Shown: positions 12,631 through 61,170 of the stretch, one piece after another
How the letters are laid out: every line of letters starts with the position of its first letter
How positions within the stretch are numbered: the first letter of the stretch is position 1
Origin: Obrimoposthia wandeli
Taxonomy: Eukaryota
Assembly: GCA_977020255.1 (NCBI GenBank)
Contig: CDROCS010003532.1
Coordinates: forward strand, 1 to 64,000
DNA length: 64,000 bases
Direction: 5' to 3'
Made by a program: the position numbers and the translations under genes
The notes under the pieces: model-generated
The model's input: only the letters and a program-made list of their open reading frames with translations
Told to the model about the DNA's origin: nothing
Databases searched by the model: none

Positions 12631-13223
12631 ATATATGAGCAAGAGCATTTCCTAGAGAATTCATCAGAAGCAACTGCTCATCAGAGACACAACTGAAGAT
12701 AAGATAAGATAAGAACGTTCATAATGTCATATTCATCCTACTACCAGGAATTTCTTTCAAGGGAATACATGGAATAAAATACTTGCAAAAACCATGTACA
12801 ATTAATATATTATACTTTTATTCCAAAATTATGATATTTGTTACGTATGTTCAACAAATTTCCTTAACTCTTTTCTTGTATATCCACTTGAACTATTCTA
12901 AGTAGCAATAAATACACTATTTGATATTATTACACTTCGGCTGTCGAGGCGACAGTAAAGTGTTTTTGTAACAAATTTCTCAGCAATAATTAATCAGGAT
13001 TAATCAATCTATAAATATAAAAAAATCAATCTATAAATATAAAAAAATCTCACTCAGCCGCTCCAATTTATCTCATAGTTGCCGATCTCACTCAGCTGCT
13101 CCAATTCACCTCGCGGTTGCAAATCAACAAGTGCTCCAATTCACCTTGCAGTTACGGATCGGCAAACTTTTCACTTCGTCCCTGGAATTAGAAATCGGAT
13201 TAGATAGGTGAGAACGTAGCGAG

Positions 13224-13758
13224 GATAAATTGCTTATAAACTAAATTGACTATTTTGAATACGTAACGAAGATAAATTGCTTATAAACTAAATTGACTAT
13301 TTTGAATACGTAACGAAGATAAATTGCTTATAAACTAAATTGACTATTTTGAATACGTAACGAAGATAAATTGCTTATAAACTAAATTGACTATTTTGAA
13401 TACGTAACGAAGATAAATTGCTTATAAACTAAATTGACTATTTTGAATACGTAACGAAGATAAATTGCTTATAAACTAAATTGATTATTTTGAATACGTA
13501 ACGAAGATAAATTGCTTATAAACTAAATTGATTATTTTGAATACGTAACGAAGATAAATTGCTTATAAACTAAATTGACTATTTTGAATACGTAACGAAG
13601 ATAAATTGCTTATAAACTAAATTGACTATTTTGAATACGTAACGAAGATAAATTGCTTATAAACTAAATTGACTATTTTGAATACGTAACAAAGATAAAT
13701 TGCTTATAAACTAAATTGACTATTTTGAATACGTAACGAAGATAAATTGCTTATAAAC
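13224..13758. repeat. 47-bp tandem array (11 full copies + partial) in the element's 3' non-coding region
   Basis: Unit GATAAATTGCTTATAAACTAAATTGACTATTTTGAATACGTAACGAA, nearly identical copies. Confidence 0.95.
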
Positions 13759-13809
13759 TTAGGTGTCATGCAATTGTCAAGGGAGATGAGGTTGAATCAA
13801 TGTTAACTG

Positions 13810-14307
13810 TTAGTTGTTCCTGTCATTTAGGAACAGCGTGACCTGTTCCAGTGGTAGGTCCGGATATGATGGGGTCTGGCCTTCGAACAGGGCCATCTGC
13901 TGGTTGAGACTGAGGTGCGGGTTGGGATGAAATAGGGTTGTGTAGCGCCCGTGGACCCCGCGATTCTGGATCCATGTTTGGCGACCGCGTTGCCATGAGC
14001 GGCAGTCACGGCTTGATCGCCATTTCTCTCGGAGGGAGAGTTTCGCGTCGCGACGACGCGCGATGCATTCGGGGCATTGGCAATGTTCGCCACCAATGCA
14101 GCTGGTGAGCGAACGAGTGTCCTTGTGTCGACCACGACATTGAAGTGTCCACTCCGCGAAGGGAGCACGGCACAACGGACATGTGACGTGGCCTTCGGGT
14201 CGAGTTCGGGCCCATATATAGAGGCACGCCTCGTGAAACTTGTGACGGCAACCGACAGGGGATGCCGATGCCGTCCAAATTTTCTCCAGGCAGACTGAGC
14301 ACTTCAT
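13810..14307 (-). CDS. RING-H2 finger protein 3 (putative E3 ligase), ~165 aa from ATG 14307
   Basis: CSVC-x-CRHKFHEAC-x-W-x-CPLC RING-H2 pattern followed by a second Cys cluster (CQCPEC). Confidence 0.8.
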   Translation of the reverse strand: MKCSVCLEKIWTASASPVGCRHKFHEACLYIWARTRPEGHVTCPLCRAPFAEWTLQCRGRHKDTRSLTSCIGGEHCQCPECIARRRDAKLSLREKWRSSRDCRSWQRGRQTWIQNRGVHGRYTTLFHPNPHLSLNQQMALFEGQTPSYPDLPLEQVTLFLNDRNN

Positions 14308-14660
14308 CTGCACAAGATAATGATTTTTTTTCAACTTGGGGTTCGACTGTTTTCGTCGTTAGTTTATGAAGTTAAAAATTTAGTTTCAAAACGAAACCTT
14401 AGTTTTTTAATCTTACCGAGTTTTGTTCCGATTTTAGGCATGTTTACACATTCATACTAGGCATAAAAAAATTGTCTTTTAGAATTTCAGTATAATAATT
14501 ACAATTTCAATTAAACAACATACATAAAAATGGTAATGGTCATTTTACAGTTTCACAAGATTATACAATTATGATTACAATTATGGTAGCTAATTTATCG
14601 CGGTATGCGATACACAGGGTAGTTCATGATGTCACGTTCAAGTCAGAAAGTTACCTTCGG

Positions 14661-14966
14661 TTATTGCTGGGAGTTGGGCTGGCCTGTGCGTCGCTCCTCC
14701 ACGCAGAACGAGCACCAGCAATCGCAGATAGTTTTCCAACAGTGTACTATGGGTACCACTGCTTGGAGGCTGTCCTGGTTGTACACGTAGTGCACTGATA
14801 AGGTTGCTCTGCACATCGGGCAGGTTGGGTAGTCGAGGGGATTGTTGCTGTTGGCGATGGGAATCCACGTCTCGAGGCATTCGATGTGGAATAGGTGGTC
14901 GCAGTTGTTGGGTTTGGTGTAGAGGTCCACGATGCTCTCGTAGCAGATGGAACATTCTCCAGACAT
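14661..14966 (-). CDS. RING-H2 finger protein 2 (101 aa)
   Basis: CSIC...CDHLFHIECLETW...CPMC plus C-terminal CWKTICDCWCSFC. Confidence 0.85.
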   Translation of the reverse strand: MSGECSICYESIVDLYTKPNNCDHLFHIECLETWIPIANSNNPLDYPTCPMCRATLSVHYVYNQDSLQAVVPIVHCWKTICDCWCSFCVEERRTGQPNSQQ

Positions 14967-15026
14967 TACTGTGAGAGGGTTGATGTTGAATTTGGGCTCG
15001 ATTGAGGACTGGTGATTGTGTGATGT

Positions 15027-15326
15027 TTACACAAAAGTGGTCGGATTTTGTCGTTCTGACAAACAGTAGTAACACCAACACTCTCCGAAATTCTTCCAAC
15101 AGAATACCACCTGTACATATACATCCTCTTGGTTGGGTTCTATCATGATGAACCTTGCGAATTGTCTTCTGCATACAGGGCAACGAGGGTATGTTGGATG
15201 TCCGAACTGTCCATAAGTTCTGATCCATGTTGATAAACATTCCTCGTGGTGTAAATGGTTGCAGGTTTCGGGTCTTGTTCTTCGTTCGGTGAGATCTTCC
15301 AAACATATTGGGCATTCTTCGGACAT
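15027..15326 (-). CDS. RING-H2 finger protein 1 (99 aa)
   Basis: CPIC...CNHLHHEECLSTW...CPVC plus C-terminal CWKNFGECWCYYC; clear paralog of the next ORF. Confidence 0.85.
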   Translation of the reverse strand: MSEECPICLEDLTERRTRPETCNHLHHEECLSTWIRTYGQFGHPTYPRCPVCRRQFARFIMIEPNQEDVYVQVVFCWKNFGECWCYYCLSERQNPTTFV

Positions 15327-15449
15327 TCTAAATACATGATGATGATTAATTTTTACATGAGTTTTATATATTTCTACTATTTGTACAATCGCTTCTAGAT
15401 ATTTCTACATATTTCACACACTAATTTATCTACAACCTCCTCTGACTTA

Positions 15450-16880: not shown

Positions 16881-19800
16881 TTATCTCAACTCTATCTTTG
16901 TACAACAAAACAAGACGAGTAATATTAATATTATAAATCCAATGATCAGTGCCAGTATTGGATTAGCCAATTCTAGAATACCATAACGTATTGCTGGTAT
17001 CCCTTTACTCTTGATGGTTAATATTTTAAATTTATGTGCACTTTGGTTGGACATGTCACTGAGAAGTACTATTTTAGTTTGTCCAAATATGTAGTCTTCA
17101 CATGTGACAACACTAATTCCATAATGTCCATTAAGTGTTTTCATTTCGGTCGCTGGAACTATACACATTCGTACTGGACATCCTTTTACACACATGATCA
17201 TTACGGCTTTACTGTGGGACGTCTTGATTATTTCTAGGGTGTTGTCTAGATTTCTCAAATGTAAATTATATTCGGATAGTGTCATCAATTCGGCTTTACT
17301 GGTTGGCATGGCTTGTAGTACCAATCCAATTACTACTCCGTAGATCAATCCTTGTGCAACGGTGCACAGGGCCTTGACTGTCCTTTTGCAAAGGGTTTTA
17401 ATTATCATTCGTTTGAGAGATATCTGTTTCTGGTTGGATCGTTTTGTTGTCTGTTGTTGTTTTGACATTTCTTCGATTCCAGTTTTTCCGATAATCAACT
17501 GTACCTGTTTACCTTGTATCATCAACTTTCCGAATCCATTTTTGGCGGACAAGCATGTTTTATGTCCTTCCATCGTTTCAATTATCACTCTCTTACTTCC
17601 ATACTCACGTGTTTTGATGACATCGCCGTCGAATATATACGTCGGTCCTTTTGTATCAGCATCTTTTTGTATTTCCTTTACAATTCGTTTTCTTCGCTTG
17701 TATCCGGCGAATGTTGTTGATATTCGGTCAAGTGCGCGCTGTCGGTCAGCTTCGTAATCCATTCGGAATTGATTCAGTATTCTGTTTTGTGGGTAAAATA
17801 TCGCTTCATTTACTATGTTGTCCTCGATCCTTTCGTCTAGATACACAAGTACTTTGTTCGTCGGTCCATTTGGTCTTTTCATCTTTACAAACTGAAATCT
17901 TTTACTGTCGGTTCTCATAGATCGGAGACATTTTCGGATGATCCACACATCAATTAATCCTAACAACACTAATAGCATCATCAGTGCCGGTGTATGGTAC
18001 TGTATGATGTAGTTGTGGATTTCTTTGAACCATGAACTATTTCCGTGGTTGGAGCCTATCTCTTGTGCTCCCGTTATCGGCATTAGACAACTTAACAAGC
18101 CTATCGCTAGCAATCTTTGGTATTGAAAGCTGGGCACTGTTGTTGTAGCTTCATTTGTTTCTCGTTGTTGCTTCCTCTTTTCAGCGTACTTCTCTATTTC
18201 TCGAACGAGTAACGGTTTGAATTTCGTATCTGGTCTATTCTGTTTGATGTAGACCATCGCTTCTTCTGGTGTATGACCATGGTACTCTACCAACAAGGAT
18301 ACACCTATGGTAGGCGCTAACATCGTACCTTTTTTCTGATATATCAGAACGCCGTTTCCTTCTGTGACTTCGGCTTGGATGGTTTGGGTCAATTTCATCA
18401 GATGTTGTTGTGCATCATTTATTTCTCGATTGGAAGCATGTATGTATCGAGTGGTGTCGTCTTCAGTATTTTGACACAGACTGATTATCTCGTTTCCGAC
18501 TTCAACAATATTAATTACTCGGTTGATACTGTGGAACTTTAATCCAGCAGTATCTATATCTCCTGGATAACATAAAAATACTTTTGGCATTATCTGCGTG
18601 ATTTTGTCGACTCCGGCTAAGAATAACCCGGTCAATGATAATGCTTGGAGGAAATTCTTTTCCTTTGGATCCTCAGGGATGTCGTCCATCCGTCTTTGTT
18701 CTTGCAACATAAGTTGGTAATTTGACAACTGTCCCAAAAAATTAAGATTTGGGTTAGCAATACTTCTTCTCTCCTGTAGGTATTTCAGTGCTTCTAGTAC
18801 CTGCATTCGTCTAGTCTTTATTAGATATGCTAATACTAGGGTTGCTGATCGAGAGATTCCTTTCTGGCAATGTACCAACACTTTTCCTTGGTTTCGGAGT
18901 TCTCTGTGAAGTATTTCGTTTGTTTCTACGAACCATTCGAGAAGATTAGCGTCCATTGAGTCTTTTACTCTTAATGTCATAGCTCTGATTGTCTGGCATT
19001 GTGATTTGTGATTCATTGTAACATTGATCACGTATGTTATCCCTTGTTCCAACAGTTTCTTTTCATCTGTTGCATCTTCCACATTTCCGAGGTATAACTT
19101 ATCTGGAATGATCTCACTCATTGGTTGCATTAATTCTGACTCTTCAAGTTTTAGTCTTTCTAATCTCTTCTCTATCTGTTCGTCGATGTTAGTTAGTTTT
19201 GCCAGTTTCTTTCCTCTCAGCATTCGTATTGCTGGAGAGATATTCATCTTTGTCTCTGATGTCTGTTCCTTTGTTGAGTCTTCTTCCGACTCGGTTTCTT
19301 CTGCAGATTTAATTCGTCTTTCTTGTATATTCTGTTTCACGAATTCTATGTTTTGTCTTTTTCTGCTCTCTTTAGCGAATTCAACCTCCATGGTTTTTCC
19401 GAATCGCTCTATTATGTTATCTTCGGATTCTGTTGATTCTGTATCGTTACTTTCAGGTTCGCTGTCTTGACTAGACTCGCTCGAAGGGTATTCTGGTATG
19501 TCTGTCTGAACTGAAATTAATGAAGGGGTTATAATAATTGGATTGACTGCCCCTGCGTATTTGTGAATCGGATACGGTATTACACTATCTTTAAGTATCT
19601 CAACTTGGAACTGTGCTCCATAGCACATGACAATTGTTTCCAATTTACCCATGATGGACAATCCATCAAAATAGGTAACATTCAGCTTAGATATCGGTGT
19701 TTTCGCATAATTAATTAAATTTACTCGTATCTCGGTTGATGACGGCCATCGATTTTTTAGTAAAATTATAATTTCGTCGTTTATCGATGTAATTACACTT

Positions 19801-21695
19801 GGCGCGGATGATACTATTTCAGCATGATATTTCGGTTGAATTGAGGTTGTCACTTGTTCTCGGATCATATTGATTCTTTGTGGTTTTTTATTTTTAGCTT
19901 CCCACTTCTGGTATCCGCTGTCAATGCGTAACTCTGCCGTTGCTTTGATGATTTTATTGTTGGTCACTTCCGGTTGGGTTGGCGAATGAAATCCTTCTAT
20001 TACGCTCAACCTTACAGATACTTCCGTTTGATCTGTGTCTAACCGGTGAGATTCCGGTATGCAACATACAATTGTCTTTCCGTCAAAGTATTTGGTGTCC
20101 ATCTGACAAATTATCTTTTCAGTGTCTGCGTCGACTAAATGGACTCTCATTAGGTCTCTTTTCCCATGTGAATTACGTAATACCATTATTACATCGTGGT
20201 ATTCTTGTTTGAGTCTTTTTGGTGTACCATGCAGTATGTGACCACCGGCCGGTTCCTTTTCTTCCTGACTGGCTAGTCCTGCTTCAGTACTGTCATAGTT
20301 CTGCCATGCAACTATGTTTGGTGTCAATGTGATTTCGATTATCACTTTCTCAGTCGTAAACACATTGGAATTTTGATGAAGCGCTGCGACTAGTGTATTT
20401 CCGTCGTAGTATGACACTCTAAGTTCGCACAGAAATTCGTTTGTCAGTGCATCTTTCACAATGACGTCTTTCGCCACATCTGTTGGTTGTGTTTTTTCGA
20501 AAACAACTATTATCTCTTCATCTTCTTCCAATATCTCTTGTGGTGCGATGTGTCGGATTACTTCCTTTTCCTCTTGGTGCTTCATTCTGAGCATACCAAT
20601 TCTCGCTGGTTTTTCCTCGCTACCACTCGTCATCATGTTTATGTAGTTCCGATCACTTACCATTCGTGTAAGTTTAATGGTATTGGTATTCGGCTTCAAT
20701 TTCTGTGATCTTAACTCATATCGTGATGCATTATCTTTATTTGGTACTAATTTACATCGATTTGCATGTACAATCATCGGTTCCTTGTTCCGATTCTCCT
20801 CGTTGATTACTTTCAAATTTGTTGAGGTTGTCTGGATCACCTTGTATGGTCCTTTGTATGGTCTATGAAGTTTAAACGATAGACCTGGTTCGATGACTGG
20901 ATAAAATATCATCACTTGATCTCCGACTCTAAATTCATGTGGTTTTGCCTTCTTGTCATATTGTTCCTTGTAACCTTCTTGATTGAATTTCAACTTCAAT
21001 CCAGCTTTGGTCCAAGCATCCTGCAATCTTTCCTTCATGACGACAATGTATTGTTCAGTTTCTAGATACTGAGATGTTGGCTCGGTCCACTTCAGATCCA
21101 TCGGCATATTGTTCTGTCTGAGATACATCAGATAGAATGGTGTGTGACCCGTCGCCTCTCGAACTGAGTTCCTGTAAGCATATAAACATGAAGGTAAATA
21201 TTTATCCCAATCCTCTTGCTTGTCTGAGCAATAGGATTGTACCATCATACATAAAGTTTTATTAAACCTTTCTACTAGACCATCTGTTTGTGGGTGATAT
21301 GGTGAAGTTTGTAACTTCATGATTCCGAATATCTTCGATACTGCTTTTATGACTTCTCCAGTGAAGTTCTTACCTTGATCCGTTAACAACTTTCTAGGCA
21401 CTCCGTATCGAAATATTATCTCTTCCACTAAGATTTGCGCTATTGTTTCAGCTTTCTGGTTCTGCATGGGATATGCTTCTACCCATCTTGTCATGTAATC
21501 CGTAAATACTATGACGTACTTGTTTCCTTTACTTGATTCTCTCAATGGTCCCAATATATCCATTGCTGTGAATTCCATTGGTGCCAAAGGAACTGGCATC
21601 GGTTTCAGTGGAACTTTAGTACGAGTTCCAGTGTCTTTTCTGGTTAAACATACTACATTGTTTACACCATTGTGTAATGTCGTCTTCCATACCAT
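16881..21695 (-). CDS. pol: Integrase core + GPY/F, 3 IPT/TIG-like repeats, DUSP, pseudo-DUSP and membrane modules (C-terminal part of the polyprotein; joined to pol across a frameshift at ~21654)
   Basis: MDILGP / TDQG / ERFNKTL integrase catalytic motifs; KGPY; HCQKGISRS at 18846-18872; several hydrophobic segments near the C-terminus. Confidence 0.9.
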   Translation of the reverse strand: MVWKTTLHNGVNNVVCLTRKDTGTRTKVPLKPMPVPLAPMEFTAMDILGPLRESSKGNKYVIVFTDYMTRWVEAYPMQNQKAETIAQILVEEIIFRYGVPRKLLTDQGKNFTGEVIKAVSKIFGIMKLQTSPYHPQTDGLVERFNKTLCMMVQSYCSDKQEDWDKYLPSCLYAYRNSVREATGHTPFYLMYLRQNNMPMDLKWTEPTSQYLETEQYIVVMKERLQDAWTKAGLKLKFNQEGYKEQYDKKAKPHEFRVGDQVMIFYPVIEPGLSFKLHRPYKGPYKVIQTTSTNLKVINEENRNKEPMIVHANRCKLVPNKDNASRYELRSQKLKPNTNTIKLTRMVSDRNYINMMTSGSEEKPARIGMLRMKHQEEKEVIRHIAPQEILEEDEEIIVVFEKTQPTDVAKDVIVKDALTNEFLCELRVSYYDGNTLVAALHQNSNVFTTEKVIIEITLTPNIVAWQNYDSTEAGLASQEEKEPAGGHILHGTPKRLKQEYHDVIMVLRNSHGKRDLMRVHLVDADTEKIICQMDTKYFDGKTIVCCIPESHRLDTDQTEVSVRLSVIEGFHSPTQPEVTNNKIIKATAELRIDSGYQKWEAKNKKPQRINMIREQVTTSIQPKYHAEIVSSAPSVITSINDEIIILLKNRWPSSTEIRVNLINYAKTPISKLNVTYFDGLSIMGKLETIVMCYGAQFQVEILKDSVIPYPIHKYAGAVNPIIITPSLISVQTDIPEYPSSESSQDSEPESNDTESTESEDNIIERFGKTMEVEFAKESRKRQNIEFVKQNIQERRIKSAEETESEEDSTKEQTSETKMNISPAIRMLRGKKLAKLTNIDEQIEKRLERLKLEESELMQPMSEIIPDKLYLGNVEDATDEKKLLEQGITYVINVTMNHKSQCQTIRAMTLRVKDSMDANLLEWFVETNEILHRELRNQGKVLVHCQKGISRSATLVLAYLIKTRRMQVLEALKYLQERRSIANPNLNFLGQLSNYQLMLQEQRRMDDIPEDPKEKNFLQALSLTGLFLAGVDKITQIMPKVFLCYPGDIDTAGLKFHSINRVINIVEVGNEIISLCQNTEDDTTRYIHASNREINDAQQHLMKLTQTIQAEVTEGNGVLIYQKKGTMLAPTIGVSLLVEYHGHTPEEAMVYIKQNRPDTKFKPLLVREIEKYAEKRKQQRETNEATTTVPSFQYQRLLAIGLLSCLMPITGAQEIGSNHGNSSWFKEIHNYIIQYHTPALMMLLVLLGLIDVWIIRKCLRSMRTDSKRFQFVKMKRPNGPTNKVLVYLDERIEDNIVNEAIFYPQNRILNQFRMDYEADRQRALDRISTTFAGYKRRKRIVKEIQKDADTKGPTYIFDGDVIKTREYGSKRVIIETMEGHKTCLSAKNGFGKLMIQGKQVQLIIGKTGIEEMSKQQQTTKRSNQKQISLKRMIIKTLCKRTVKALCTVAQGLIYGVVIGLVLQAMPTSKAELMTLSEYNLHLRNLDNTLEIIKTSHSKAVMIMCVKGCPVRMCIVPATEMKTLNGHYGISVVTCEDYIFGQTKIVLLSDMSNQSAHKFKILTIKSKGIPAIRYGILELANPILALIIGFIILILLVLFCCTKIELR

Positions 21696-23778
21696 CCCAA
21701 TGGTATTTCTCTTTGATTCTGGCTATTGTCTTTCGCCCTGACAGATGTCCTCCTAGTGTTCCATCGTGATACTGGATCATCACTGCTGTTTTCAATGACT
21801 TCGGAATTACTACGACTATCTTTCCGACATTGTTGACAATATACAAGATTCCTTCTTTTATCGAGTATTTTTTCGTCATTTCATCGTTTAGATCTCCTTT
21901 CACCAACAATTCTTTGATTAGACTCAGTTCTTCATCTTCTTTCTGTTCTTTGATGATCTCTTTGTCTATTTTACCCGTTTTCAGCAAAATCGTTAGTAGA
22001 TTTGCTTCTCCTATTTGGTCATTGGTTTCATCTTCTTCTGGAATTATGTTTCCTTTCTCGTCTACATTTGTCAATCTCGACAAACAATCTGCGTTGCCGT
22101 TCGACTTTCCGGTTCTATAACGGATTTCTAGATCGAATTCGGCCAATTTTAGAAACCATCTGTTTAATCTACTCATCTCATCTCTATGTTTATATAAGAA
22201 CTGTAGTGGTTTGTGATCTGTATATAGGAATACTTTTTGTCCTAGCAAGTAGTGTCTGTACTGTCTACATGAATACACTATGGCTAGACATTCCTTTTCG
22301 ATAACAGAGTATCCTCTTTCGGCTCTGTTTAATCCTCTACTCGCATACGCGATGACGTGTTCCCTTCCTTCGTCATCCTCTTGTCCCAATACTGCTCCTA
22401 CAGCATAGTTACTTGCATCTGTCATGAGTATGAATTGTCGGTTTATATCTGGAAACGCTAATATTGGTGCTTTTATCAGTCTTTCTTTTAAATGCTCGAA
22501 CGCTTGTTGTGCTTCTTTTCCCCATATGAACTTCTCATCTTTCCTCGTCAACTTTCTCAATGGTGTTGCTATATCTGAAAAATGTTCAACAAATCGTCTA
22601 TAATAATTCACAAGACCTAAAAAACTCTGTATTTCTTTAACAGTCTTTGGCGCTAAATGCGCTTTTACTTTCTCGATCTTTGCTGGATCAGGTCGGATGC
22701 CTTCTTTCGATACTATATGTCCTAAAAATGTTACTCGCTCTTTAGCCCATTCGCATTTTGTAGGTTTAACTTTTAATTTAGCGTTTTCCAGTCTTTTAAA
22801 TACGACTTCAAGATTTTTTAAATGTTCTTCGAACGTTTTCGAAAATATTATTATGTCATCGATATAAACCATCGTGTTTGCACACGATGCGAGTACAAAA
22901 TTCATGCAACGCTGAAATGTTGCTGGAGCTCCTGTTAGTCCGAATGGCATTTTTTCGCATTCGTATAGTCCATCTCCGCAGGAAAAGGCTGTTTTGTGTT
23001 TATCCTCTTCCTCTATCTCGATTTGCCAGTATCCACTCTGCAAATCCAATGTCGTAAAATAATCTGAATTACCCAATTTATCGAGCATCTCTTCGATTCT
23101 AGGTAATGGATACACATCTTTTCTTGTGATCTTGTTCAGTTCTCTGAAATCTATACAGAATCTCATTTTCCCATCCTTCTTTTTTACCAACACCACAGGT
23201 GCTGAGAATGGTGAAAAACTCGGTCTAATTACTCCTGTTTTAGACATATCTTCAATCTGACTTTTTACTTCATCTTGTAGCTGTAATGGTACTCGATATG
23301 GTCTTCTTCTGACTACTTTGTCTTCTGTCAGTGGTATTGTGTGTTTTATGACAGGTGTTTCTCCTATGTCATATGGATTTTTTGCAATTACTTTCGGAAA
23401 TTTATGTATTAGATCAAGTAATTGTTTCTTTTCTCTAGTTGTCAGTCTTTCTGATTGGATTACTATTTCTTCGTAATCATTCGTGTCTTTATCGAGTTTC
23501 ATAGCACACACAGTGGGATTCTCCATTTGTGCTATCTTTCCCAACCTCATTCCTCTGTATAATAGGATGTCATTGTTGGTTGTATTCATCAGTCTGACTG
23601 GTATTTTGTGGTTTTCAATCAGACATACTGTACTCACAACTGGTAATTCGTATTTCTCTATGAAATCTCGTGATGGTTCGAACACAACTGGTCCTTTATC
23701 TTCTGATAACGTGTGACCTTGAATGAGAAATTGTGATCTTTTACCGATTTTTATAGGATTCTCTATAAATACATCAAT
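21616..23778 (-). CDS. pol: Reverse transcriptase, RNase H and integrase Zn finger (frame open from 23778)
   Basis: RFCIDFRELN, LDLQSGYWQI, MPFGL, YIDD (22855-22866), TDASNYAVGAVL, HKPL, and HDGTLGGH...WCKQC. Confidence 0.95.
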   Translation of the reverse strand: MDVFIENPIKIGKRSQFLIQGHTLSEDKGPVVFEPSRDFIEKYELPVVSTVCLIENHKIPVRLMNTTNNDILLYRGMRLGKIAQMENPTVCAMKLDKDTNDYEEIVIQSERLTTREKKQLLDLIHKFPKVIAKNPYDIGETPVIKHTIPLTEDKVVRRRPYRVPLQLQDEVKSQIEDMSKTGVIRPSFSPFSAPVVLVKKKDGKMRFCIDFRELNKITRKDVYPLPRIEEMLDKLGNSDYFTTLDLQSGYWQIEIEEEDKHKTAFSCGDGLYECEKMPFGLTGAPATFQRCMNFVLASCANTMVYIDDIIIFSKTFEEHLKNLEVVFKRLENAKLKVKPTKCEWAKERVTFLGHIVSKEGIRPDPAKIEKVKAHLAPKTVKEIQSFLGLVNYYRRFVEHFSDIATPLRKLTRKDEKFIWGKEAQQAFEHLKERLIKAPILAFPDINRQFILMTDASNYAVGAVLGQEDDEGREHVIAYASRGLNRAERGYSVIEKECLAIVYSCRQYRHYLLGQKVFLYTDHKPLQFLYKHRDEMSRLNRWFLKLAEFDLEIRYRTGKSNGNADCLSRLTNVDEKGNIIPEEDETNDQIGEANLLTILLKTGKIDKEIIKEQKEDEELSLIKELLVKGDLNDEMTKKYSIKEGILYIVNNVGKIVVVIPKSLKTAVMIQYHDGTLGGHLSGRKTIARIKEKYHWDGMEDDITQWCKQCSMFNQKRHWNSY

Positions 23779-24129
23779 TTAGTTTATTTGTCTGTTTGAT
23801 GTGCTATCCTTCAATCTTGGATCTTGTAAATCAATACTTATCCCTTTAAGTTGTGATAGTACATCCATTCCTAAAATTGTAGGTTCAGGACATTCTTTCA
23901 TGATTCTAACTGGTATAGTGATCGTATTACGTCCAATTATAAATGTACACGGTAATATTCCCGTCACTTTTACAGGGTCTCCATTGACCGATACCAAGAA
24001 TTCATCTGGTTCTGCCATTGTTCGTTTCTGTTCCTCTGTCAGACAATCTTCACTTACTATCGAAGCTACAGCACCTGTATCAATTAAGGCTTCTACTCTT
24101 AAATTATTTACTCTAATGATAGCTGCTGG
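23779..24129 (-). CDS. Second aspartic protease, in frame with but bounded by TGA (24130-24132) and TAA (23779-23781)
   Basis: Translating past the ORF1 TGA gives PAAIIRVNNLRVEALIDTGAVASIVS...ILGMDVL (DTG at 24073-24081). Confidence 0.85.
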   Translation of the reverse strand, partial: PAAIIRVNNLRVEALIDTGAVASIVSEDCLTEEQKRTMAEPDEFLVSVNGDPVKVTGILPCTFIIGRNTITIPVRIMKECPEPTILGMDVLSQLKGISIDLQDPRLKDSTSNRQIN

Positions 24130-27100
24130 TCACTGTGCTCCATTTATATTTCCCATATGGTATATTGTATTTATCGAATTATTACACTCTGTCGGTCCAC
24201 TTCCTTTGTTTGGATAGTGAAATCTAATATTTCTCACTTGTCGATCTATTATTCGTCGACAAATCGGACATGATACCATTTCCTTCGCACATCTCCGACA
24301 TGTTCTTACATGTCCGCATGGTAAAAAGGCAACTTCTATTTTGTTGACCATGCAAACTGCGCATTCCGGATCTTCTAGTACGTATTCTAGTTCATTTATG
24401 TACTCTTTCTCTTTTGTTTCAATTGTACTGTCATCTTTATCTTTCAGTAATTCAAAAATTGATCCGTATCCATTTCGCGTAGTTTTTATTTTTAATTCTA
24501 CCAAATCTCTGATTCTTTCTGCTTCTTTTGGATATAACCTTCTCACGAATGACACTACCGGTGTGTCTTGTTGAGCCAAAATCTCTTTCCGTGTGATTTG
24601 GTATTCGATTATACATTCGGTTTTCTGTTCTTTTTGCTTTATTTTGTTTTTTAACATACAAAACTCGCAAAATTCATGATGTAAAATTTTCTTAGGTAAC
24701 TCAAGAGTATATCTGTCGATAATTCGTTCTTTTTTACACTTGTGGCATTTAATTACGTCTTTACCATCCTTTTTTATAGCAAAAAGTCCCTTTTTTGCCA
24801 ATTTTTTAAGTCTTGGATCTTCGAAAGTTATTTCTCGATATTGTTCGTCACATTCGTTCACTTCTCGCATGACTTCGAATATATCTTCAATTCGGCTATT
24901 TGTTATTACTCTACCTACTATTAGAGCTGATTTTCCTTTTGGAATCTCGTCACTGTTATCGAAATCGGGTGCTTTTCCCATTTGGATTTCTGGTACGTTT
25001 GAAGTTTTCAGTTTCAAAAGAAATGGACAATTTGGTGCATCTCTTTTATGACGTTTCATTGGGTTTTCATTGTTTTCCCACTCTCTAAACTCTACTCTAC
25101 ACCATACGCATCGTACTTCTTCCTCAGAACCATAACTATTTGTCGCGTTTAACATTTGTAAACCTGTTCTTGCCATTTTACGTGCCATTTCTTTTGAATA
25201 GTACAGTTCTAATATATTTCGTCTTTTTTTCTCGAATCTCATGGGATCCTTTTCTGACAGATTCACATATGTTATTTTCCTCCTCGTCATCTCTTGTGGT
25301 CCGAGGTTTACGTTTTTGTAGTGAAGTATCGACTTTACTAGCGCTTCCTGTTTTTTGTCTTGGTACGAATTTCCCATACGGAACGTAGTGTATTTTTCCT
25401 TTTCGACTATAGGTCCTCTCAACATTTTTATCTCTCTCACTGAACTGTCATTCTTATAACTCTTGTTGTTTGGTAATATAATTATTCCTTCAAACATTCT
25501 TATTACGTCCATCCCAATCATGACTGGACTACCGCAATCTGTTAATATTCTAGCATTTAACTGCAATGCTCTCCCATCGATATTCAACGAACATTTCAGT
25601 GTTCCTTCCGACACTACATCTGTACCATTCACGTTAACAAATGTCTGTTTTCTAGGACATACTTCTCTTAATTCTTTTGATGACAAGATTTCTTTACTCA
25701 GTACTGATACTGCGGATCCAGTATCAACTTCGGCAAGATATTCTCTTCCGTTCAATGTTACTGCTACTTGTGGTGGAGCATTTGGATTCTCATTTGGATT
25801 CTCATTTGATATCCTAGACTTCAGAATTCTTCTGGAATTATCTTTTTTGTCTTTTTCCTCTGCTTGTGGAATCTCACTGTAGCTCACTTTAGGCCATCTT
25901 ATCATTAAGATGCCTCTCTTGAACTTTTCCTTCTCTTCCTTTAGTTCCTTCATTGGATATAGGTTTAACGCCACTTCTTCCTTGTCTGGTAACGGAATCT
26001 TTGGTTTTCCTGGTATCTTTGCATATACTCCTGGGCTATCATTATCGTCGTCGTTGTCGTCTCGATAATTTCTTGGGTCTCGCATCATGGTTCTCGTTTG
26101 ATGTTGTTCCTTCTTGAGGGCTCGCAACTCGTTCTCGTGATGATGGTGCATTAGATATTTTGCTAAAAATGGAAAACATCCAATTATAAGTTGCCAGGTG
26201 ATTCCGGTTATCCTGTATAAACTATACGTAGACAACACCTGGGCTATAATTACCTGCACAAATTTAATTATAACATAAATACCTATGATACCCGAAAATA
26301 GTTGTCCTAAAACAAGGAATTTCCCCCACATCTTTCTAAGTGTCTGATGTGCTGCTTCCTTGAAATGACTTGGCGATAATAACATATCAAAATTCGCATA
26401 TCTAGCTCCTGGCGGTAATGCTCGATGTACCATCTCCGTAAGTACTCTGGCTCTTTTTACTGGAAACATTATTTCGTTCCATGCCGCTTTTAAGTCTTTT
26501 TCATTGTACAATCCTGCGTTCTCCATATTTTCCACCGCTTCGGATTTCATTTTACCTTTGAGATTCGTCATTTTTATCATCGCTGGGGTTTTCGTTGGCT
26601 TTCGATCAGGTAACATTATCCATAGATCATTCGTCATCTGATATTCAGATGCCATTATATTAGAGCAGCTGATTTCTTTAGTTGGAGTGTCTTTTGGAAG
26701 TATTATTCTCGTGATTGGTTCAACAAAGAGTTCTTGTAAATTATACGTTACTGCCAATTCACTCGTACATCGGTCTGTTTTTCTCAACTGTACTTCTACT
26801 TTATTACACTTGTAAGTATACAATACTTCTCCCATGGTTTTAGCAAATACTCCTTCATCCAAGGGTAATAATGGTGCTACCATGTCTGGATTCGTAATAG
26901 CTAATGCTAACTTTGTTCTTACGATCTCTTTGTTTAGCTGGCAATCTCTTTCGATCATCATCCGATATAACTGTTCCATTTGCATCAATCCTTTATGATA
27001 ATAAAAATCAATTTTATTATTAAAATACGTGTGTAGCTGCATATCTCTAGGTTTTAGCTTGGTTTCTGCCAATGCTATTGTTTCTTTGGACAAAACTATT

Positions 27101-30100
27101 CCAGGATAGTTTGTAGTACTAACAGTCATTCCGCATCGCGCTTTGTTTCTCTTTTTAATAAATATCAATCCTTCTTCTATTGATGTTGCCATTAACAGTG
27201 TAGGTGTCTTTGTCATTGGAATTGGTCTTGTTTCATTGAGCAATCCTTTTCCAACTTTATTATACAGGAACCCTTCTCCATCTTTATTATACAGGAATCC
27301 TTTTATTTTATTAAAGCTAATCTCTTTCAAAAATACTAAAGAGCATTGCTTCGGATTCACGTGATACACAATTGTGGATTCACCTGTAAAACAAGATGCA
27401 TCTGTCATTTTACATTCTGGATACTTCATCATTCGTTGTGTCTTTTTATCAAAATTGGCAGTCCATGATTTTAATTCAATTTTGTAAGTTACGTCCATTA
27501 CTAACTCTGTTACTTTGGTTCCACGCACGTTTTTTGTTCCTCCGTCACAAGATCCATCAGCCCATCGTTGTCCAACTCTCGTGACTGTTTCGTATCGTCT
27601 CACTCCAATTTTTACAACAGGTTTGTAATTCTTGTCTATTTCTATTGTTCCTGTACGAAATGCGTCTTCGCAATCTCTCGGAAAAACCTTATGTGCTTTG
27701 TACGGTGTGGTAGGTGTGATTTCCGACATAAAACTTCTATGGCCACAATAGAATTCGTGATAACTTGAATGAACTGAACATTCTTTCACTTCTACTTGTA
27801 CTTTATCAACATCCTGATACACAAAGTAGTTTTCAACACCTTTAACTTCTAATTTTGACTGTTGTGATTCTGGACAGTCTTCGCTGTCAAGCAGTGAATA
27901 CTTTTGTCCCATCTTTGGTATGCTACAGTCGTATGCTATCAATCCTGATGCCTGTTGCATTCCCATGAACATTACTAACATCATCATCATCATTGTTGTG
28001 GACATATTTGGTTGATTGTTTCTTTCTTTTGGACGGTATTGTTTATTTTCTCTTTGACGATTCTCATGACATTGTTCGTCATCGTCTTCGTTCATTTCCA
28101 CAATGGTTTTAGCGTAGTCACTTAATTTTGCCCAACCTCCGTTTTCGTCAATTCGTCTTTGTAACACATTCTCGATCAAATACATCGCTTCATTTATTCC
28201 TTGTTTGACTTCGTGAGGTTGGCTCGTTCGTTCCGTCAATTGGAAACATAGATATGTGATTGCTGTAATTAACTTTTTATTTGTAGTCTGGCTTCCACAT
28301 AATCTCGCTAAAACTTCACCGTCATAAAATCTATCTATCGATGCATGGTATACATGATTCGCGGTCATTCTCTTTACTGCAGACATCTGTGATCTAACTG
28401 CTTTAGTCAAATTGTCTGTTATATCGGTTGTTTCATCTCTGTACATTTTGAACAACTTCGGCTTCACTTGCCTGAGAATTCCCGTAAGTATATCTTTACT
28501 ACTTGGAGCTTCTGAATTCATATCACCTCTGATATCTTCATTCCTCTCTGCACTATACTGCTCTAATGACGCTGCTAACTGTCCAATGCTTAGATGTCTC
28601 TCTTCATCAGTTTGTGGTGCAGTTAGAACATTTCGTAATATACTTCCGTCTTTTCTAGGTCTTCCAGGTCCTCTTCGAAAATACTGATACTCAGTTTGAT
28701 TCTCTCCTGGATCATACGGTTCACCATTATACTGTATCTCTTGACTTGGTCCTTCTTCATGGCCAATCTCTTCATTTTGTCGCATCATCTGCTCTGCTTG
28801 TCTATCTTTGTATGCAGCATGCCAAATTGGTGAATCTAAATCTACAATTTCGGAGATTTCGTCTTCTCCTACTAGTTGGGTTACGTTTTCGTTTTGTCTC
28901 ACTTGGTTAGCTGTATTCGCGACTTCATCTTGTCTGATTTGAATTATATCTGGTTCTGGTGGTACCTCGACCACTGGAGTTGTCAACTCATTTTCTAAAT
29001 TCATGTCTTGTAATTCTGCTACGTACGGTTCTGGTGTGGATGTCTTGTTCCAAGCTTCAGCTACATCGTTATCTCCGCTTTCGCTTGAACTGTCTAAAAT
29101 TTCTATAGGCGATTTTATCATTTCTAATGCAGTGTTTAATATCTCCGTTAATCCTTCATTATCTACTAACTCTTGACGTCCTACAGTGATGATATCAATT
29201 TTTTCTTCTAATTCGTTTCCTATCGGATATCCACACTCGACTGGTACGTCCTCATCATCTAGTGATCTCCCTTTATAATGGAACAACATATTCATTCCAT
29301 AAATTTCAAGTTTCTCGGCCAACTTTTTTCGAATAGTTTTCATTGTCTGATACACGTTAAGTTTTTCATGTATTATCTGTCCGGAAATTAATCGAAGCGA
29401 AATTTTCATCGTTCCCTTTTGGTTTGATCTCTGTACGTAACGACCATATCCTTTCAATAATCCTCGTGGTATTTCTTTGTAACCCAAGTTATCATGACTA
29501 AGTTTAACCAATTCTGCTCGCACTTCTTCCAATCTGTGCACTTTAATTGTTTGCAATTTGGCCAAAACTTCTGGAGCTTCACTCGTTTCATCTAACGGTT
29601 GATTCAACGTCTCCTTAGCTTCACTAATTATCTTTTTTACATTTTCCATACTCGTAGCATTTCTTGCTGCTTCTACATGATCAGTCATAGGTTGTGCGTT
29701 ACACGTTTTCTCTATTGGTGTCTCATACGCTTCTAGTATTTGATTCATTAAATCATTCATCTCTTCTCTCGAGTGTAGACTTTTTTCTTGTTTCGACAAC
29801 GTAGATGAATTCGCCATCTTTGTATGTGGTGAATCTTTAATTATTCCCAACATTCGTTCAAATTTACTATCACTATCTTCAAAATCTATTTCGCGTCGAA
29901 GTTCGGTCTCGCGATTCCTATCGCTGTCATCGTTTACATAACTAAAATTTCCTTTCGGTTTCGGCGAACTCTCACGACTATTCGTCTTGTCAACATTATT
30001 ATTATTATATCTACCGGAATTATTATATCTCTCAGCTCCTTGCTGTCCTACGTAATTATTGTATCTCTCAGCTCCTTGCTGTCTGTCTGCATAATTATTG

Positions 30101-31662
30101 TATCTACCTGGTGACTGTTGTCTATCTGTATACTGATTATTCGGTCTCCATGGCTGTGGAGTATATCCACCACCTCTATTCCATGGCGGAGGTGAATTAT
30201 ATCCTCTATAATTATTTCCAAAATTATTATTACCGAAATTATTATTTCCAAATCTGTTAGTTCCGAACTCCTTACTTCTCGTACAATCTCTCGAATAGTG
30301 ACCCATTTGTTTACACGTGTAACACATTATTCTCCCTCGAATATCTATCTTATTTTGTTCATCTTCGAACTGCACTCGACGACTATTCTGTCTATTATCA
30401 TAGCGTCCTCTAAAATCATTTCTTCGGAAATTCGATTCAAAACCGCTTCCTCGATTATTGAATCTTCCGTCACTACTTCCTGTATTATTCCCAAATCGAG
30501 AGTCACTTCGCTCTCCTCTGTTTGCGCTATAATTCCTATCGTCTCCTCTCCAAGGTTGGCGATTTCCTGAATTATCTCTATTAAATCTATTCCTGGAATC
30601 ATCTCTATTTCTATTCCACGAATCATTACTATTTCTACCTCTTGAATCATCTCGATTCCTGTTCCAAGACTCACTATTATTTCTACCTCTCGAATCATCT
30701 CGATTCCTACTTCGGAAATTATCTCTGTTTCCGTTACTGGATTCATCTACTTTTTCAAACTTATTTTGTCCGTAATTTCGATTCTGAAAATTACTCGGTT
30801 CTGTTTTATTCACAAATACCTTTGTCTTATCGTCGTCACCTGCAGTCATTGCGTAAATTGCCAATGCTGCGTTATTTTTTATATTTTTCTCAATCTCTCT
30901 CGCCTTTCGCAAGGCGTTATCAAAATCATTTGTATCCGATACTGCTAATAACACTTTAATATCCTTTTTCAATCCTCCTCTAAATATATCTAACAAAACT
31001 TCTGCCATTTCATTTTGGTTCCACTCATTTTCCGCTACTTGTGCTTCTTGAGCCACAAGACTACCGTCCTGATTTCTCATTATTCTTCTTGGGTACGCTC
31101 TTGCGGCCAAGGTTCTCAACACATACGCGTATTCATTCACGCCTTCGTCATGTTTCTGTTTCCGTTCTCTCATGATTCGCTTATTTACTTTTGCTAAGTC
31201 TCCCAATACTAATTTTCCAATAAAAGCATTTTCCAACGTTGGCCAGTCTAAACGTTCTGCTTCTGTCAAGTGTTTATACACTTCAAGTGCTAATCCGGTT
31301 AAGTGTGCCTGCACTCGGACACATTTTTCTTTATCGTTCCATCCTTGAACATCTGCACAACTTGAATATTCTGCGAGGAAGTCACAAATACTTTCCTCAT
31401 CTCCTTTAAACTTTGTAATCTGCAATGATCCTGAAAAGTTGGGTCTCAACGTCGCATTTAAGGCTTGTTCCAACTGTTCGGCATTCATGTCACCTACATT
31501 ATTTCCTGCATTATTATCTACTTGAGCTCCTGGGTGAGCCATATTTTCAGCTATATCCTCTTCAACTATTTCTTCAATATTATTCAATTGAAAGTCCTCA
31601 ATCACTACTGGATTGGCAATTTCAAATTCTTCTGGGTTTATGTCACCAAATAATTCAGTCAA
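24130..31662 (-). CDS. gag: 2510-aa polyprotein: Gag-CCHC, ubiquitin-like domain, AT-hook, Bcl-2-like domain, chuvirus/gB-type glycoprotein, protease 1, BIR, degenerate BIR, RING
   Basis: CYTCKQMGHYSRDC (30283-30324); Ubl-like 29175-29409; RRGPGRPRK 28651-28677; IDENGGW ~28122-28150; signal + LIAYDC 27925-28005; TM ~26230-26325; DTG 25717-25725; BIR 25015-25240; C3HC4 RING 24255-24363. The listed start is TTG; the first ATG is at 31542. Confidence 0.92.
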   Translation of the reverse strand: MTELFGDINPEEFEIANPVVIEDFQLNNIEEIVEEDIAENMAHPGAQVDNNAGNNVGDMNAEQLEQALNATLRPNFSGSLQITKFKGDEESICDFLAEYSSCADVQGWNDKEKCVRVQAHLTGLALEVYKHLTEAERLDWPTLENAFIGKLVLGDLAKVNKRIMRERKQKHDEGVNEYAYVLRTLAARAYPRRIMRNQDGSLVAQEAQVAENEWNQNEMAEVLLDIFRGGLKKDIKVLLAVSDTNDFDNALRKAREIEKNIKNNAALAIYAMTAGDDDKTKVFVNKTEPSNFQNRNYGQNKFEKVDESSNGNRDNFRSRNRDDSRGRNNSESWNRNRDDSRGRNSNDSWNRNRDDSRNRFNRDNSGNRQPWRGDDRNYSANRGERSDSRFGNNTGSSDGRFNNRGSGFESNFRRNDFRGRYDNRQNSRRVQFEDEQNKIDIRGRIMCYTCKQMGHYSRDCTRSKEFGTNRFGNNNFGNNNFGNNYRGYNSPPPWNRGGGYTPQPWRPNNQYTDRQQSPGRYNNYADRQQGAERYNNYVGQQGAERYNNSGRYNNNNVDKTNSRESSPKPKGNFSYVNDDSDRNRETELRREIDFEDSDSKFERMLGIIKDSPHTKMANSSTLSKQEKSLHSREEMNDLMNQILEAYETPIEKTCNAQPMTDHVEAARNATSMENVKKIISEAKETLNQPLDETSEAPEVLAKLQTIKVHRLEEVRAELVKLSHDNLGYKEIPRGLLKGYGRYVQRSNQKGTMKISLRLISGQIIHEKLNVYQTMKTIRKKLAEKLEIYGMNMLFHYKGRSLDDEDVPVECGYPIGNELEEKIDIITVGRQELVDNEGLTEILNTALEMIKSPIEILDSSSESGDNDVAEAWNKTSTPEPYVAELQDMNLENELTTPVVEVPPEPDIIQIRQDEVANTANQVRQNENVTQLVGEDEISEIVDLDSPIWHAAYKDRQAEQMMRQNEEIGHEEGPSQEIQYNGEPYDPGENQTEYQYFRRGPGRPRKDGSILRNVLTAPQTDEERHLSIGQLAASLEQYSAERNEDIRGDMNSEAPSSKDILTGILRQVKPKLFKMYRDETTDITDNLTKAVRSQMSAVKRMTANHVYHASIDRFYDGEVLARLCGSQTTNKKLITAITYLCFQLTERTSQPHEVKQGINEAMYLIENVLQRRIDENGGWAKLSDYAKTIVEMNEDDDEQCHENRQRENKQYRPKERNNQPNMSTTMMMMMLVMFMGMQQASGLIAYDCSIPKMGQKYSLLDSEDCPESQQSKLEVKGVENYFVYQDVDKVQVEVKECSVHSSYHEFYCGHRSFMSEITPTTPYKAHKVFPRDCEDAFRTGTIEIDKNYKPVVKIGVRRYETVTRVGQRWADGSCDGGTKNVRGTKVTELVMDVTYKIELKSWTANFDKKTQRMMKYPECKMTDASCFTGESTIVYHVNPKQCSLVFLKEISFNKIKGFLYNKDGEGFLYNKVGKGLLNETRPIPMTKTPTLLMATSIEEGLIFIKKRNKARCGMTVSTTNYPGIVLSKETIALAETKLKPRDMQLHTYFNNKIDFYYHKGLMQMEQLYRMMIERDCQLNKEIVRTKLALAITNPDMVAPLLPLDEGVFAKTMGEVLYTYKCNKVEVQLRKTDRCTSELAVTYNLQELFVEPITRIILPKDTPTKEISCSNIMASEYQMTNDLWIMLPDRKPTKTPAMIKMTNLKGKMKSEAVENMENAGLYNEKDLKAAWNEIMFPVKRARVLTEMVHRALPPGARYANFDMLLSPSHFKEAAHQTLRKMWGKFLVLGQLFSGIIGIYVIIKFVQVIIAQVLSTYSLYRITGITWQLIIGCFPFLAKYLMHHHHENELRALKKEQHQTRTMMRDPRNYRDDNDDDNDSPGVYAKIPGKPKIPLPDKEEVALNLYPMKELKEEKEKFKRGILMIRWPKVSYSEIPQAEEKDKKDNSRRILKSRISNENPNENPNAPPQVAVTLNGREYLAEVDTGSAVSVLSKEILSSKELREVCPRKQTFVNVNGTDVVSEGTLKCSLNIDGRALQLNARILTDCGSPVMIGMDVIRMFEGIIILPNNKSYKNDSSVREIKMLRGPIVEKEKYTTFRMGNSYQDKKQEALVKSILHYKNVNLGPQEMTRRKITYVNLSEKDPMRFEKKRRNILELYYSKEMARKMARTGLQMLNATNSYGSEEEVRCVWCRVEFREWENNENPMKRHKRDAPNCPFLLKLKTSNVPEIQMGKAPDFDNSDEIPKGKSALIVGRVITNSRIEDIFEVMREVNECDEQYREITFEDPRLKKLAKKGLFAIKKDGKDVIKCHKCKKERIIDRYTLELPKKILHHEFCEFCMLKNKIKQKEQKTECIIEYQITRKEILAQQDTPVVSFVRRLYPKEAERIRDLVELKIKTTRNGYGSIFELLKDKDDSTIETKEKEYINELEYVLEDPECAVCMVNKIEVAFLPCGHVRTCRRCAKEMVSCPICRRIIDRQVRNIRFHYPNKGSGPTECNNSINTIYHMGNINGAQ

Positions 31663-32592: not shown

Positions 32593-34317
32593 TGTTGGGG
32601 TTTCTATACGAGACTTGTATAGATCCTCTTGTGTGCGGAGGGCCCCAACGTGAGTTCGAATAGAAGCAGGTCTTAAAGTTGGTCGTGGCCTACTTAGTGT
32701 TATGGTTGCCTATCTCTATTGCTTATCTGAAGGTGTTTGCTTTTCGATGTCTCTTAGTCTGAAGGGTTTAGAACAGTACTTTTAATGTAGGAAATCGTTT
32801 ATTGTTAACACACTAGGCTAATGAACAATACGTTTACGTACGTATTTTCTAAAAAGTTGTAGTAAAATTCCTAAGACTTTCGTAAGTCTCTGCACAAGTG
32901 AGGATGAACCACGTATCGATTTTACGGTTATGTTTGTTTTAGTCGCTAGAGTCTTTACTCTAAAAATAGGGATTGATTTTAGAGAGCCGTTGCTCTAAAA
33001 TTTAAGTAGCCTAAAAAGTCTGAAGGGTTTGTTTCCAAAATGTCTTCACGACAACAGATTACCTTATTTCAAATTTTCTTATGATTACAAAATTCCAATT
33101 TGTCTTCGCGACAACAAATTACTATTACAAAACTTCAATTTGTCTTCACGACAACAATTATTATTACAAAACTTCAATTTGTCTTCACGACAACAAATTA
33201 CTTCATTACGACAACAATTACTATTACAATTAAATGTCTTCACGACAACAAATTATTATTACAAAACTTAAATTTGTCTTCACGACAACAAATTATTATT
33301 ACAAACTTCAATTCGTCTTCACGACAACAATTACTATTACAAAACTTCAATTTGTCTTCACGACAACAATTACTATTACAAAACTTAAATTTGTCTTCAC
33401 GACACAGCTTACTATATTTCAGATTTTCTTACGATTACAAAATTCCTTTATTTCAAATTCTTTTACGATTACAAAGATTACTTTATTTCAAATTTTCTTA
33501 CGATTACAATTCTTCTGGCTCACCTTCCAAATCTGTAGATAATTTCCATCTCGTTCGGATCCTAGTTCCGGCGCTCCTTGTCTCTTCGGAACAGTGACTT
33601 CCTGTCCGCCGATTCGTGGTTTACGCCCTTGACAGTTGGCGTGTCTCGTTTCTGTTCTGTATGTTTGTGTTAATGATTTTCTTTTCTAACTGTTTTCTTA
33701 CCTCTGCTTGGCGTTCGGTCTCGATCAGGAATGATATTGTTTCTGCCGAGAATTCTCTTGTTAATGGCTTGATTTGGGCTCGTTTCCGTGGATCGGAATA
33801 AGATTGTTTCTGCCGAGAATTCTCTTTTTAATGGCTTGATTTGGGTTCGTTTGATAGGCTGATTTCCGTAGACTTATATAGTCTATTTCTCTGCTGATTT
33901 CCCCGGTGACGTGGTCTGTCAATCAATCTTCTGGTTCGCTGCGGAAAGTATTTATTTTAGCTAAATTAATTAATTTTCTCACTTCAGGAACAGCTGTCGG
34001 GACGTGGCTGCTGACGTCGACTGGATTTCGGTTTGTACTTCTTCTTTTAAATTTCCTTTTCCTAATTAATCTTCTTTCTTGTAATGACTTATCTTCAGAG
34101 CTATATCTTTTTTGGGCCCTTTTCTTAAGTCTAACTTCAATATAAACATACACATTTCACACGACCTTCGTGGTCCTCTAATATTCAATTTTCCTTTTAC
34201 TTTAATATTTTACTTCTAATTTTCAATTTTATTTAATTTTAACCTTGTTTTCAAGGATTTTCATTTTAGTATAAATTCGACTTAATTATTTAATTTTAAC
34301 AAAACCCAATCCTAACA
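32593..34317 (-). mobile_element. 5' LTR of the giant element (1725 bp)
   Basis: TGTT...AACA ends, adjacent PBS, both ends homologous to the solo LTRs; AATAAA at 32798-32803. Confidence 0.9.
33040..33400. repeat. ~39-bp tandem array inside 5' LTR, ~9 copies
   Basis: Unit CTTCACGACAACAATTACTATTACAAAACTTCAATTTGT. Confidence 0.85.
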
Positions 34318-60633: not shown

Positions 60634-61038
60634 TTAAACATAAAACAACATATTGGCTTCACTCAAAGTCCAGAGAGGCTGCATTTTCCCGTCATCAGCA
60701 AAATATCCATTCAGACGTATTGAGATATTCCATAGTTCTTCATCTAGAATTGGAGCAATCAAATATCCTAGATCATCTTTAAAATCCAGACTGGGATCAG
60801 TTTCAAGCTCGAAACAATTTCCTTCATATACATAATCAGGAATGTAAAATCCCAAAATATTTTTCAGTTGATCAAAATCAGTTGTTGTTAAAATTTCGAT
60901 GAGATATTTTTTCTCCACTTTTGATATTTTCACAGGATTCATAACTCGTATAATTTGATGCCTCTTTAATATATTACATAGTTTTCCTTTTGAAATTCTT
61001 TCTGGATAATAAAAATTTGCTACACATCTCTTATCCAT
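60634..61038 (-). CDS. Polinton orphan ORF (~134 aa from MDKRC)
   Basis: Intact ORF; disrupted homologs at ~59556-59937 and ~44760-45060. Confidence 0.6.
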   Translation of the reverse strand: MDKRCVANFYYPERISKGKLCNILKRHQIIRVMNPVKISKVEKKYLIEILTTTDFDQLKNILGFYIPDYVYEGNCFELETDPSLDFKDDLGYLIAPILDEELWNISIRLNGYFADDGKMQPLWTLSEANMLFYV

Positions 61039-61170
61039 TCTAAAATAAGGAAACTGATTAAAAACAATGTTTATAAAAATACACATAAGATACAAATAAG
61101 ATACAAATAAAACTGTTTATTAAATGAAAGAAACATAGTAAAACCGATTACAATTTATTACACACAAAAG

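Follow-up and report, generated by a model that had tools for sequence, protein, structure and literature searches.

An inhibitor-of-apoptosis module under purifying selection within the polyprotein of a Burro-like giant Ty3/gypsy retrotransposon

All the motifs of an inhibitor of apoptosis (IAP) occur near the end of a single 2545-residue frame (31767–24130, minus strand) in DNA of Obrimoposthia wandeli, a position that raises the question of whether the IAP is genuine, what maintains it there, what it does and where it came from. The DNA analysed, hereafter the window, comprises 64 000 nucleotides (positions 1–64 000, forward strand, of contig CDROCS010003532.1, GenBank assembly GCA_977020255.1). 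A sequence-only reading had placed a BIR, a second, degenerate BIR and an IAP-type RING inside a polyprotein at 24255–25240, and had proposed that they protect cells from death and could benefit the host.

The three assigned domains were borne out. HMMER, the check that had been proposed, matched Pfam BIR over residues 2192–2250 (E 3.8e-11; score 43.8 bits, the cut-off being 22.9), with C2220, C2223, H2240 and C2247 as zinc ligands, and zf-C3HC4_3 over residues 2466–2509 (E 1.9e-11). A PDB sequence search with the module gave 40 matches at E ≤ 0.001, with cIAP1, cIAP2, NAIP and XIAP at the top; the best matches of the RING were cIAP1, cIAP2 and XIAP. The second BIR-like unit, BIR2, fell under the Pfam cut-off (E 0.0055), scored 13.6 bits against an HMM made from 198 cellular BIRs, a score that none of 500 shuffles reached, and had an hhalign probability of 89%; it is a genuine but degenerate BIR. 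The location given earlier was correct, with homology extending slightly wider, from about 25332 to 24220 (Table 1), and the list of units had missed one: a UBA-like helical unit sits between BIR2 and the RING (hhalign 78%; in a predicted model of the module, VIA Z 5.7 and rmsd 4.0 over 60 residues to the XIAP UBA, a weak match). The domain order is therefore BIR, degenerate BIR, UBA-like, RING, as in the C-terminal part of cellular IAPs.

A structure model that used 80 sequences, with cellular IAPs in the majority (mean pLDDT 79.7, pTM 0.37; an earlier prediction from six sequences only had given pLDDT 39), predicted a BIR1 fold with VIA Z 12.7 to BIRC6 and 11.6 to DIAP1 BIR1, and a RING fold with Z about 9 to known RINGs. 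The fold search with the same model returned no row centred on BIR2. An Atlas search with the module led to IAP clusters, and word-index homologue searches found cellular-type IAPs only (four and three matches). Pfam, PDB, HMM and fold matches thus agree on an IAP architecture, and with a BIR that has both its Cys/His ligands and its fold, and a C3HC4 RING of IAP type, the module belongs to the IAP family.

Table 1. Features of the retroelement and its IAP module in the window.
Feature	Coordinates	Strand	Basis or remark
Solo LTR, related subtype	7852–9578	−	4-bp target-site duplication
RT, RNase H, integrase core	21291–23187	−	Two frames in the window's copy
Aspartic protease 2	23782–24129	−	Pfam; downstream of IAP module
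Whole IAP module (B-IAP type)	24220–25332	−	Homology span to stand-alone Maverick IAPs and ENA proteins P0199 and P0207
IAP-type C3HC4 RING	24220–24372	−	Pfam, PDB matches, ligand conservation
UBA-like helical unit	24430–24579	−	Weak match; within the module's least variable region
Degenerate BIR2	24658–24855	−	Cys/His ligands retained, groove residues gone
BIR1	25018–25242	−	C-x2-C-x16-H-x6-C ligands; Pfam, ligand count, structure match
Aspartic protease 1 (DTG motif)	25498–25767	−	Pfam; upstream of IAP module
Monjiviricetes-type fusion glycoprotein (Env), best stretch	26056–27210	−	PF24664, E 9.3e-94
Possible Bcl-2-like domain	28132–28320	−	E 0.07, under cut-off
Ubiquitin-like domain	29158–29415	−	Weak, E 0.0039, under cut-off
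Gag (retrotrans_gag region and one CCHC knuckle)	30280–31530	−	Pfam
5′ LTR (TGTT...AACA)	32593–34317	−	Followed by a PBS-like site beginning TGG

By Pfam domain order, the polyprotein is that of a giant Ty3/gypsy element, and an aspartic protease stands on each side of the module. The element runs Gag, ubiquitin-like (weak), Bcl-2-like (very weak), Env, PR1, IAP, PR2, RT, RNase H, integrase, phosphatases and RING-H2 ORFs, the Env being of mononegavirus type and in frame between Gag and PR. The two flanking proteases are ∼28% identical to each other. Further searches with the Bcl-2-like region, the Atlas included, gave it no support and returned nothing meaningful. No Pfam match to a dUTPase-like domain was found between PR and RT, none to MATH or ankyrin at E ≤ 0.05 in the eight frames scanned, and no tRNA gene by ARAGORN. 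Past the integrase, two dual-specificity phosphatase (DSP) stretches occupy 18100–19100 (minus strand), the first with HCxxGxxRS and the second without, and two or three repeated, beta-rich-looking units at 19623–20615 (minus strand) have no Pfam match. Three short tandem ORFs (13810–15404, minus strand), each with one RING finger (E 5e-8 to 5e-10), close the internal region on its 3′ side, and a 47-nt tandem array follows them at about 13115–13853.

The LTR is about 1.7 kb long. Similarity to other copies extends to about 13808, which makes the internal region very long, and the cognate 3′ LTR was not found within the window. Repeats 24.7 kb apart were considered as the element's LTR pair and rejected, since the one at 7852–9578 is a solo LTR flanked by a target duplication of its own; it is 78–87% like the 5′ LTR, and in patches only. 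In two of the three other copies compared, long LTR pairs match at 96–98%. Elsewhere in the window (43000–45050 and 59500–63400) there are dispersed inverted or duplicated repeats of other transposable elements, unrelated to the IAP module.

The genome holds 3751 candidate matches to the retroelement, and the best 40 scored, window included, were 97–100% identical. In the window's copy, protease 2 has a stop on each side; that at 24130–24132 occurs in one of 65 copies and that at 23779–23781 in one of 64 aligned, in both cases the window's own. Because these stops are private, and other listed copies lie in stop-free frames of more than 5000 aa, the family encodes one polyprotein and the window's copy is defective. 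The IAP module is fused in frame across the family, so that 'inside the polyprotein', as the sequence-only reading had it, is true of the family, even though the window's copy has a stop right after the RING. The module is broken in 12 of the 64 fully covered copies.

Selection on the module was followed in 65 copies with 93.6–98.2% identity to the window: 12 from the copy search (window included), 13 of the 15 loci from another own-genome search (the other two, a stand-alone Maverick-type gene, were left out), and 40 more fetched from the latter's list. We used simple site counting, with multi-change codons excluded and most copies chosen by likeness to cellular IAP. Singletons in the module comprised 167 nonsynonymous and 73 synonymous changes, against 33 and 48 among variants present in at least four copies (Fisher p 5.5e-6). 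The corresponding omega was 0.57 for singletons and 0.17 for shared variants, the neutral baseline being rough because singleton omega is 0.57 instead of 1. When BIR1 and the RING were taken alone, the depletion among shared variants persisted (p 0.011).

This constraint is unevenly spread. Shared omega was 0.07 in the RING and 0.04 in the UBA-like region, compared with 0.23 in BIR1, 0.29 in the BIR2-like unit, 0.25–0.31 in the linkers and 0.01 in PR plus RT; the two BIRs are thus constrained no more tightly than the linkers, and far more loosely than PR and RT. In the two proteases, the shared variants were all synonymous, 19 in one and 14 in the other. The zinc ligands of BIR1 were retained in 65 of 65 copies, and the eight of the RING in 64–65 of 65. 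We conclude that purifying selection acts on the IAP module in the lineage that transposes, and most strongly on the RING and UBA-like unit. The lack of a BIR fold and the neutral evolution that the sequence-only reading had named as grounds for abandoning its claim are thus the opposite of what was found, namely a predicted BIR fold and purifying selection.

What the module might do was approached through its peptide-binding groove. In BIR1, W2230 and E2234 are retained, position 2239 is R (R2239) as against E in 64 of 74 cellular rows, and position 2243 is D; BIR2 is without the groove W, D and PW. In the RING, R2504 is retained in 64 of 65 copies. The functional roles of W2230, E2234, R2239 and R2504 are presumed ones. 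Since the groove of BIR2 is lost and that of BIR1 appears half lost, RING-dependent ubiquitylation is the likelier mechanism. According to passages of PMC3972657, it is through the type II groove, held essential to anti-apoptotic properties, that caspases are bound, and E3 activity belongs to the RING; they describe IAP RINGs as E3 ligases that ubiquitylate caspases, and type I BIRs as binding signalling adaptors. Judged from sequence comparison, it is rather likely that the module is a captured IAP, lying in frame between proteases and kept by selection, that would act as a RING ubiquitin ligase dampening caspase-driven death of the expressing cell.

Such a mechanism would involve several steps. 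The chain continues beyond the RING, whereas the RINGs of cellular IAPs stop within a few residues of the end, and release by cleavage would therefore be needed. The element's own proteases may release an IAP of ∼400 residues at linkers on both sides; candidate protease-site-like motifs occur at residues 2113 and 2532, in a count of such motifs that is near chance (three observed versus 1.7 expected in P0001). BIR1 would then bring in caspases or regulators that promote death, probably by some route other than an intact IBM groove, for ubiquitylation by the RING. E3 activity against caspases or their regulators would favour survival of the cells that express the element. The degenerate BIR2 is probably structural.

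A groove altered in the window module and in all five mobile relatives aligned would also suit an active ubiquitin ligase with other targets than caspases, one that would remove restriction factors, adaptors of innate signalling or proteins of the element itself, BIR1 serving as a type-I-like protein adaptor. A constraint centred on the RING and UBA-like unit is in keeping with this, as are the other ubiquitin and signalling cargo of the element (the ubiquitin-like domain, the three RING-H2 ORFs and the phosphatases) and the adaptor binding of type I BIRs described in the same passages (PMC3972657). We nevertheless think it unlikely, because the groove residues W2230 and E2234 are retained in 64 and 63 of the 65 copies respectively, the possible, weak Bcl-2-like domain points towards apoptosis, and the B-IAP of Burro1 is reported, in a passage of PMC13465017, to act against caspase-mediated apoptosis.

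A caspase-directed RING ligase leaves the question of whom it serves. What selection among transposing copies shows is a gain for the element, which need not be one for the host; it is the element that benefits directly. Retention mainly for the host's good, with the module protecting stem cells as a mutualist or after domestication, rather than for transposition, would have a precedent in the mutualism reported for Burro1 (in the part of PMC13465017 concerned), and thousands of copies could provide a stress-inducible transcript. We find it improbable, more so than a ligase with non-caspase targets, because the selection signal resides in variants common to transposed copies while inserted copies gather private stops and frameshifts; besides, host benefit is compatible with the RING-ligase explanation. 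By analogy with the report on Burro1, some benefit to O. wandeli is possible. Least probable by far, and largely refuted, is a neutral passenger retained only through its in-frame position upstream of Pol, for although that position by itself selects against stops and frameshifts, and the omega of BIR1 and BIR2 is close to that of the linkers, shared variants are purified (0.17 versus 0.57) with amino-acid changes too depleted among them for neutrality (p 5.5e-6; 0.011 for BIR1 and RING), the zinc ligands are near-invariant, and the folds of four domains are recognisable despite ∼65% divergence from Maverick relatives.

Those relatives bear on the origin of the module, for which a phylogeny against host and viral IAPs had been suggested as a way to identify the donor. 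A BIR search of the genome gave 12 110 candidates, and the 150 scored were mostly repeated frames, many of them of 341 or 301 aa. Twenty BIR loci were fetched, of which two are host-gene-like; of the other 18, 14 match the module significantly and four match in the BIR only. Two IAP loci viewed in 30-kb context lie inside 15–16 kb TIR-bounded elements with a protein-primed PolB, an integrase and a packaging ATPase, and these elements are Mavericks. Their IAP genes are intron-free and stand-alone (301 or 341 aa), end just past the RING, and align across the whole module at 35–38% identity. At least two Maverick families have an IAP (L021/L039 and L022/L042), one retaining a degenerate BIR2 (341 aa) and the other without it (301 aa). 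Beside another Maverick-type IAP, a phosphatase-like stretch (L015:2855–3187) matches the retroelement's DSP region (E 1e-7), which hints at a second shared cargo. Identical BIR-bearing frames recur at 7148-base spacing (L027–L029, G000:C3084), where a Maverick-like fragment is repeated in tandem.

Two ENA proteins, P0199 and P0207, are related to the module over their full length as well; a metagenome scan for their context returned nothing. Five rows (the module, the Maverick IAPs, P0199 and P0207) formed one clade against 101 cellular-type and five viral IAPs (FastTree 0.987), and did so again in a quick IQ-TREE analysis against 31 cellular-type and five viral IAPs (SH-aLRT 99), the clade having a long stem (with the tool's long-branch warning), an unsettled internal order and no host IAP to root it. 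The nearest kin are thus Maverick IAPs of the same genome, and neither baculovirus IAPs nor the sampled cellular ones. Among the 69–150 candidates scored out of 12 000–18 000 in each own-genome search, no host BIR–RING IAP was found; the scored candidates yielded only a BIR and an exon, which by resemblance we take to be survivin-like and BIRC6-like respectively, and element copies. Because only part of the candidates were scored, and introns split genes, a host BIR–RING IAP may exist.

That the closest relatives are Maverick IAPs from the same genome, in one clade with the module, points to a possible exchange between mobile elements. Tentatively, and with somewhat less than even confidence, we suggest that a stand-alone IAP of a mobile-element lineage moved between Mavericks and the retroelement, rather than coming straight from the host, and was fused between duplicated proteases. 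Two separate captures of a fast-evolving host gene are no less plausible than a transfer between elements, and such a transfer may have run in either direction. Adintoviruses with IAP and Bcl2 homologues are mentioned in a portion of PMC8502044. In a literature search by title and start of abstract we found no description of a Burro–Maverick IAP link; Lee et al. 2026 and its supplements may have one. If transfer did occur, a gene would have passed, within one animal genome, between a retroelement and a transposon resembling a DNA virus; the account of B-IAP origin would need revision, and the anti-death gene of the Burro–host mutualism would trace back to a viral, Maverick-linked source.

The host is probably a triclad. 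In the multi-copy COI of the assembly, the use of AAA, ATA and AGR agrees with genetic code table 9, and four of its top five matches are named triclads (73–75%). Large contigs contain some eight flatworm-type copies of COI that are nearly identical to one another. The assembly is contaminated, with many bacterial COI-family genes and the mitochondrial COI of a second animal (L038), and it is these foreign COI genes that keep the assignment to triclads at probable.

An IAP module in Burro elements is already published, which the sequence-only reading did not recognise. The relevant part of PMC6431247 gives Burro elements a BIR, BCL2-like and ubiquitin-like domains and an in-frame mononegaviral Env in an ORF of 4873–5140 aa, and a passage of PMC13465017, citing Lee et al. 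2026, states that the Burro1 B-IAP (RING and BIR) protects the stem cells of planarians against apoptosis mediated by caspases; parts of PMC8532177 and PMC11410931 touch on the expression of Burro and its genome context. The core finding is therefore already in print for Burro1. What is added here is an independent lineage with population-level evidence of IAP selection in transposing copies, together with the tighter constraint on the RING and UBA-like unit than on the BIRs, which guides the search for a mechanism.

Compared with Burro1 by description only, the element fits a Burro-type giant Ty3/gypsy: it is a long LTR element with PR–RT–RH–IN order, a polyprotein of Burro size (∼4900–5100 aa), an in-frame Env, and a BIR and RING. 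As far as the described parts of Burro/GYPSM1 allow, the likeness extends to thousands of copies, a single polyprotein of ∼5000 aa, Gag, possible (weakly matched) ubiquitin-like and BCL2-like domains, a mononegavirus-type Env in frame ahead of PR, the BIR and RING module, and a (probable) planarian host. The element differs in having one CCHC knuckle, as against two or three in Burro, no MATH or ankyrin match in the ORFs scanned, and an LTR of about 1.7 kb. The MATH and ankyrin domains and three CCHC knuckles that strictly define Burro1/GYPSM1 were thus not found in the frames scanned, and we have filed the element as Burro-type and not as Burro1. An IAP flanked by two proteases, and phosphatase and RING-H2 cargo past the integrase, are not mentioned in the Burro description in section 7 of PMC6431247. 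With cellular and baculoviral IAPs (cIAP1/2, XIAP, DIAP1, IAP3), the module shares the BIR–BIR–(UBA)–RING order, the zinc ligands and the folds, but its last BIR is degenerate, its groove is altered, the tail of its RING is extended inside a polyprotein, and it falls in a separate, long-stemmed clade. To the IAP genes of Maverick/Polinton (adintovirus) elements it is alike over the full module length at the identity given above; there, however, the IAP stands alone, whereas here it is a segment of a retroelement polyprotein.
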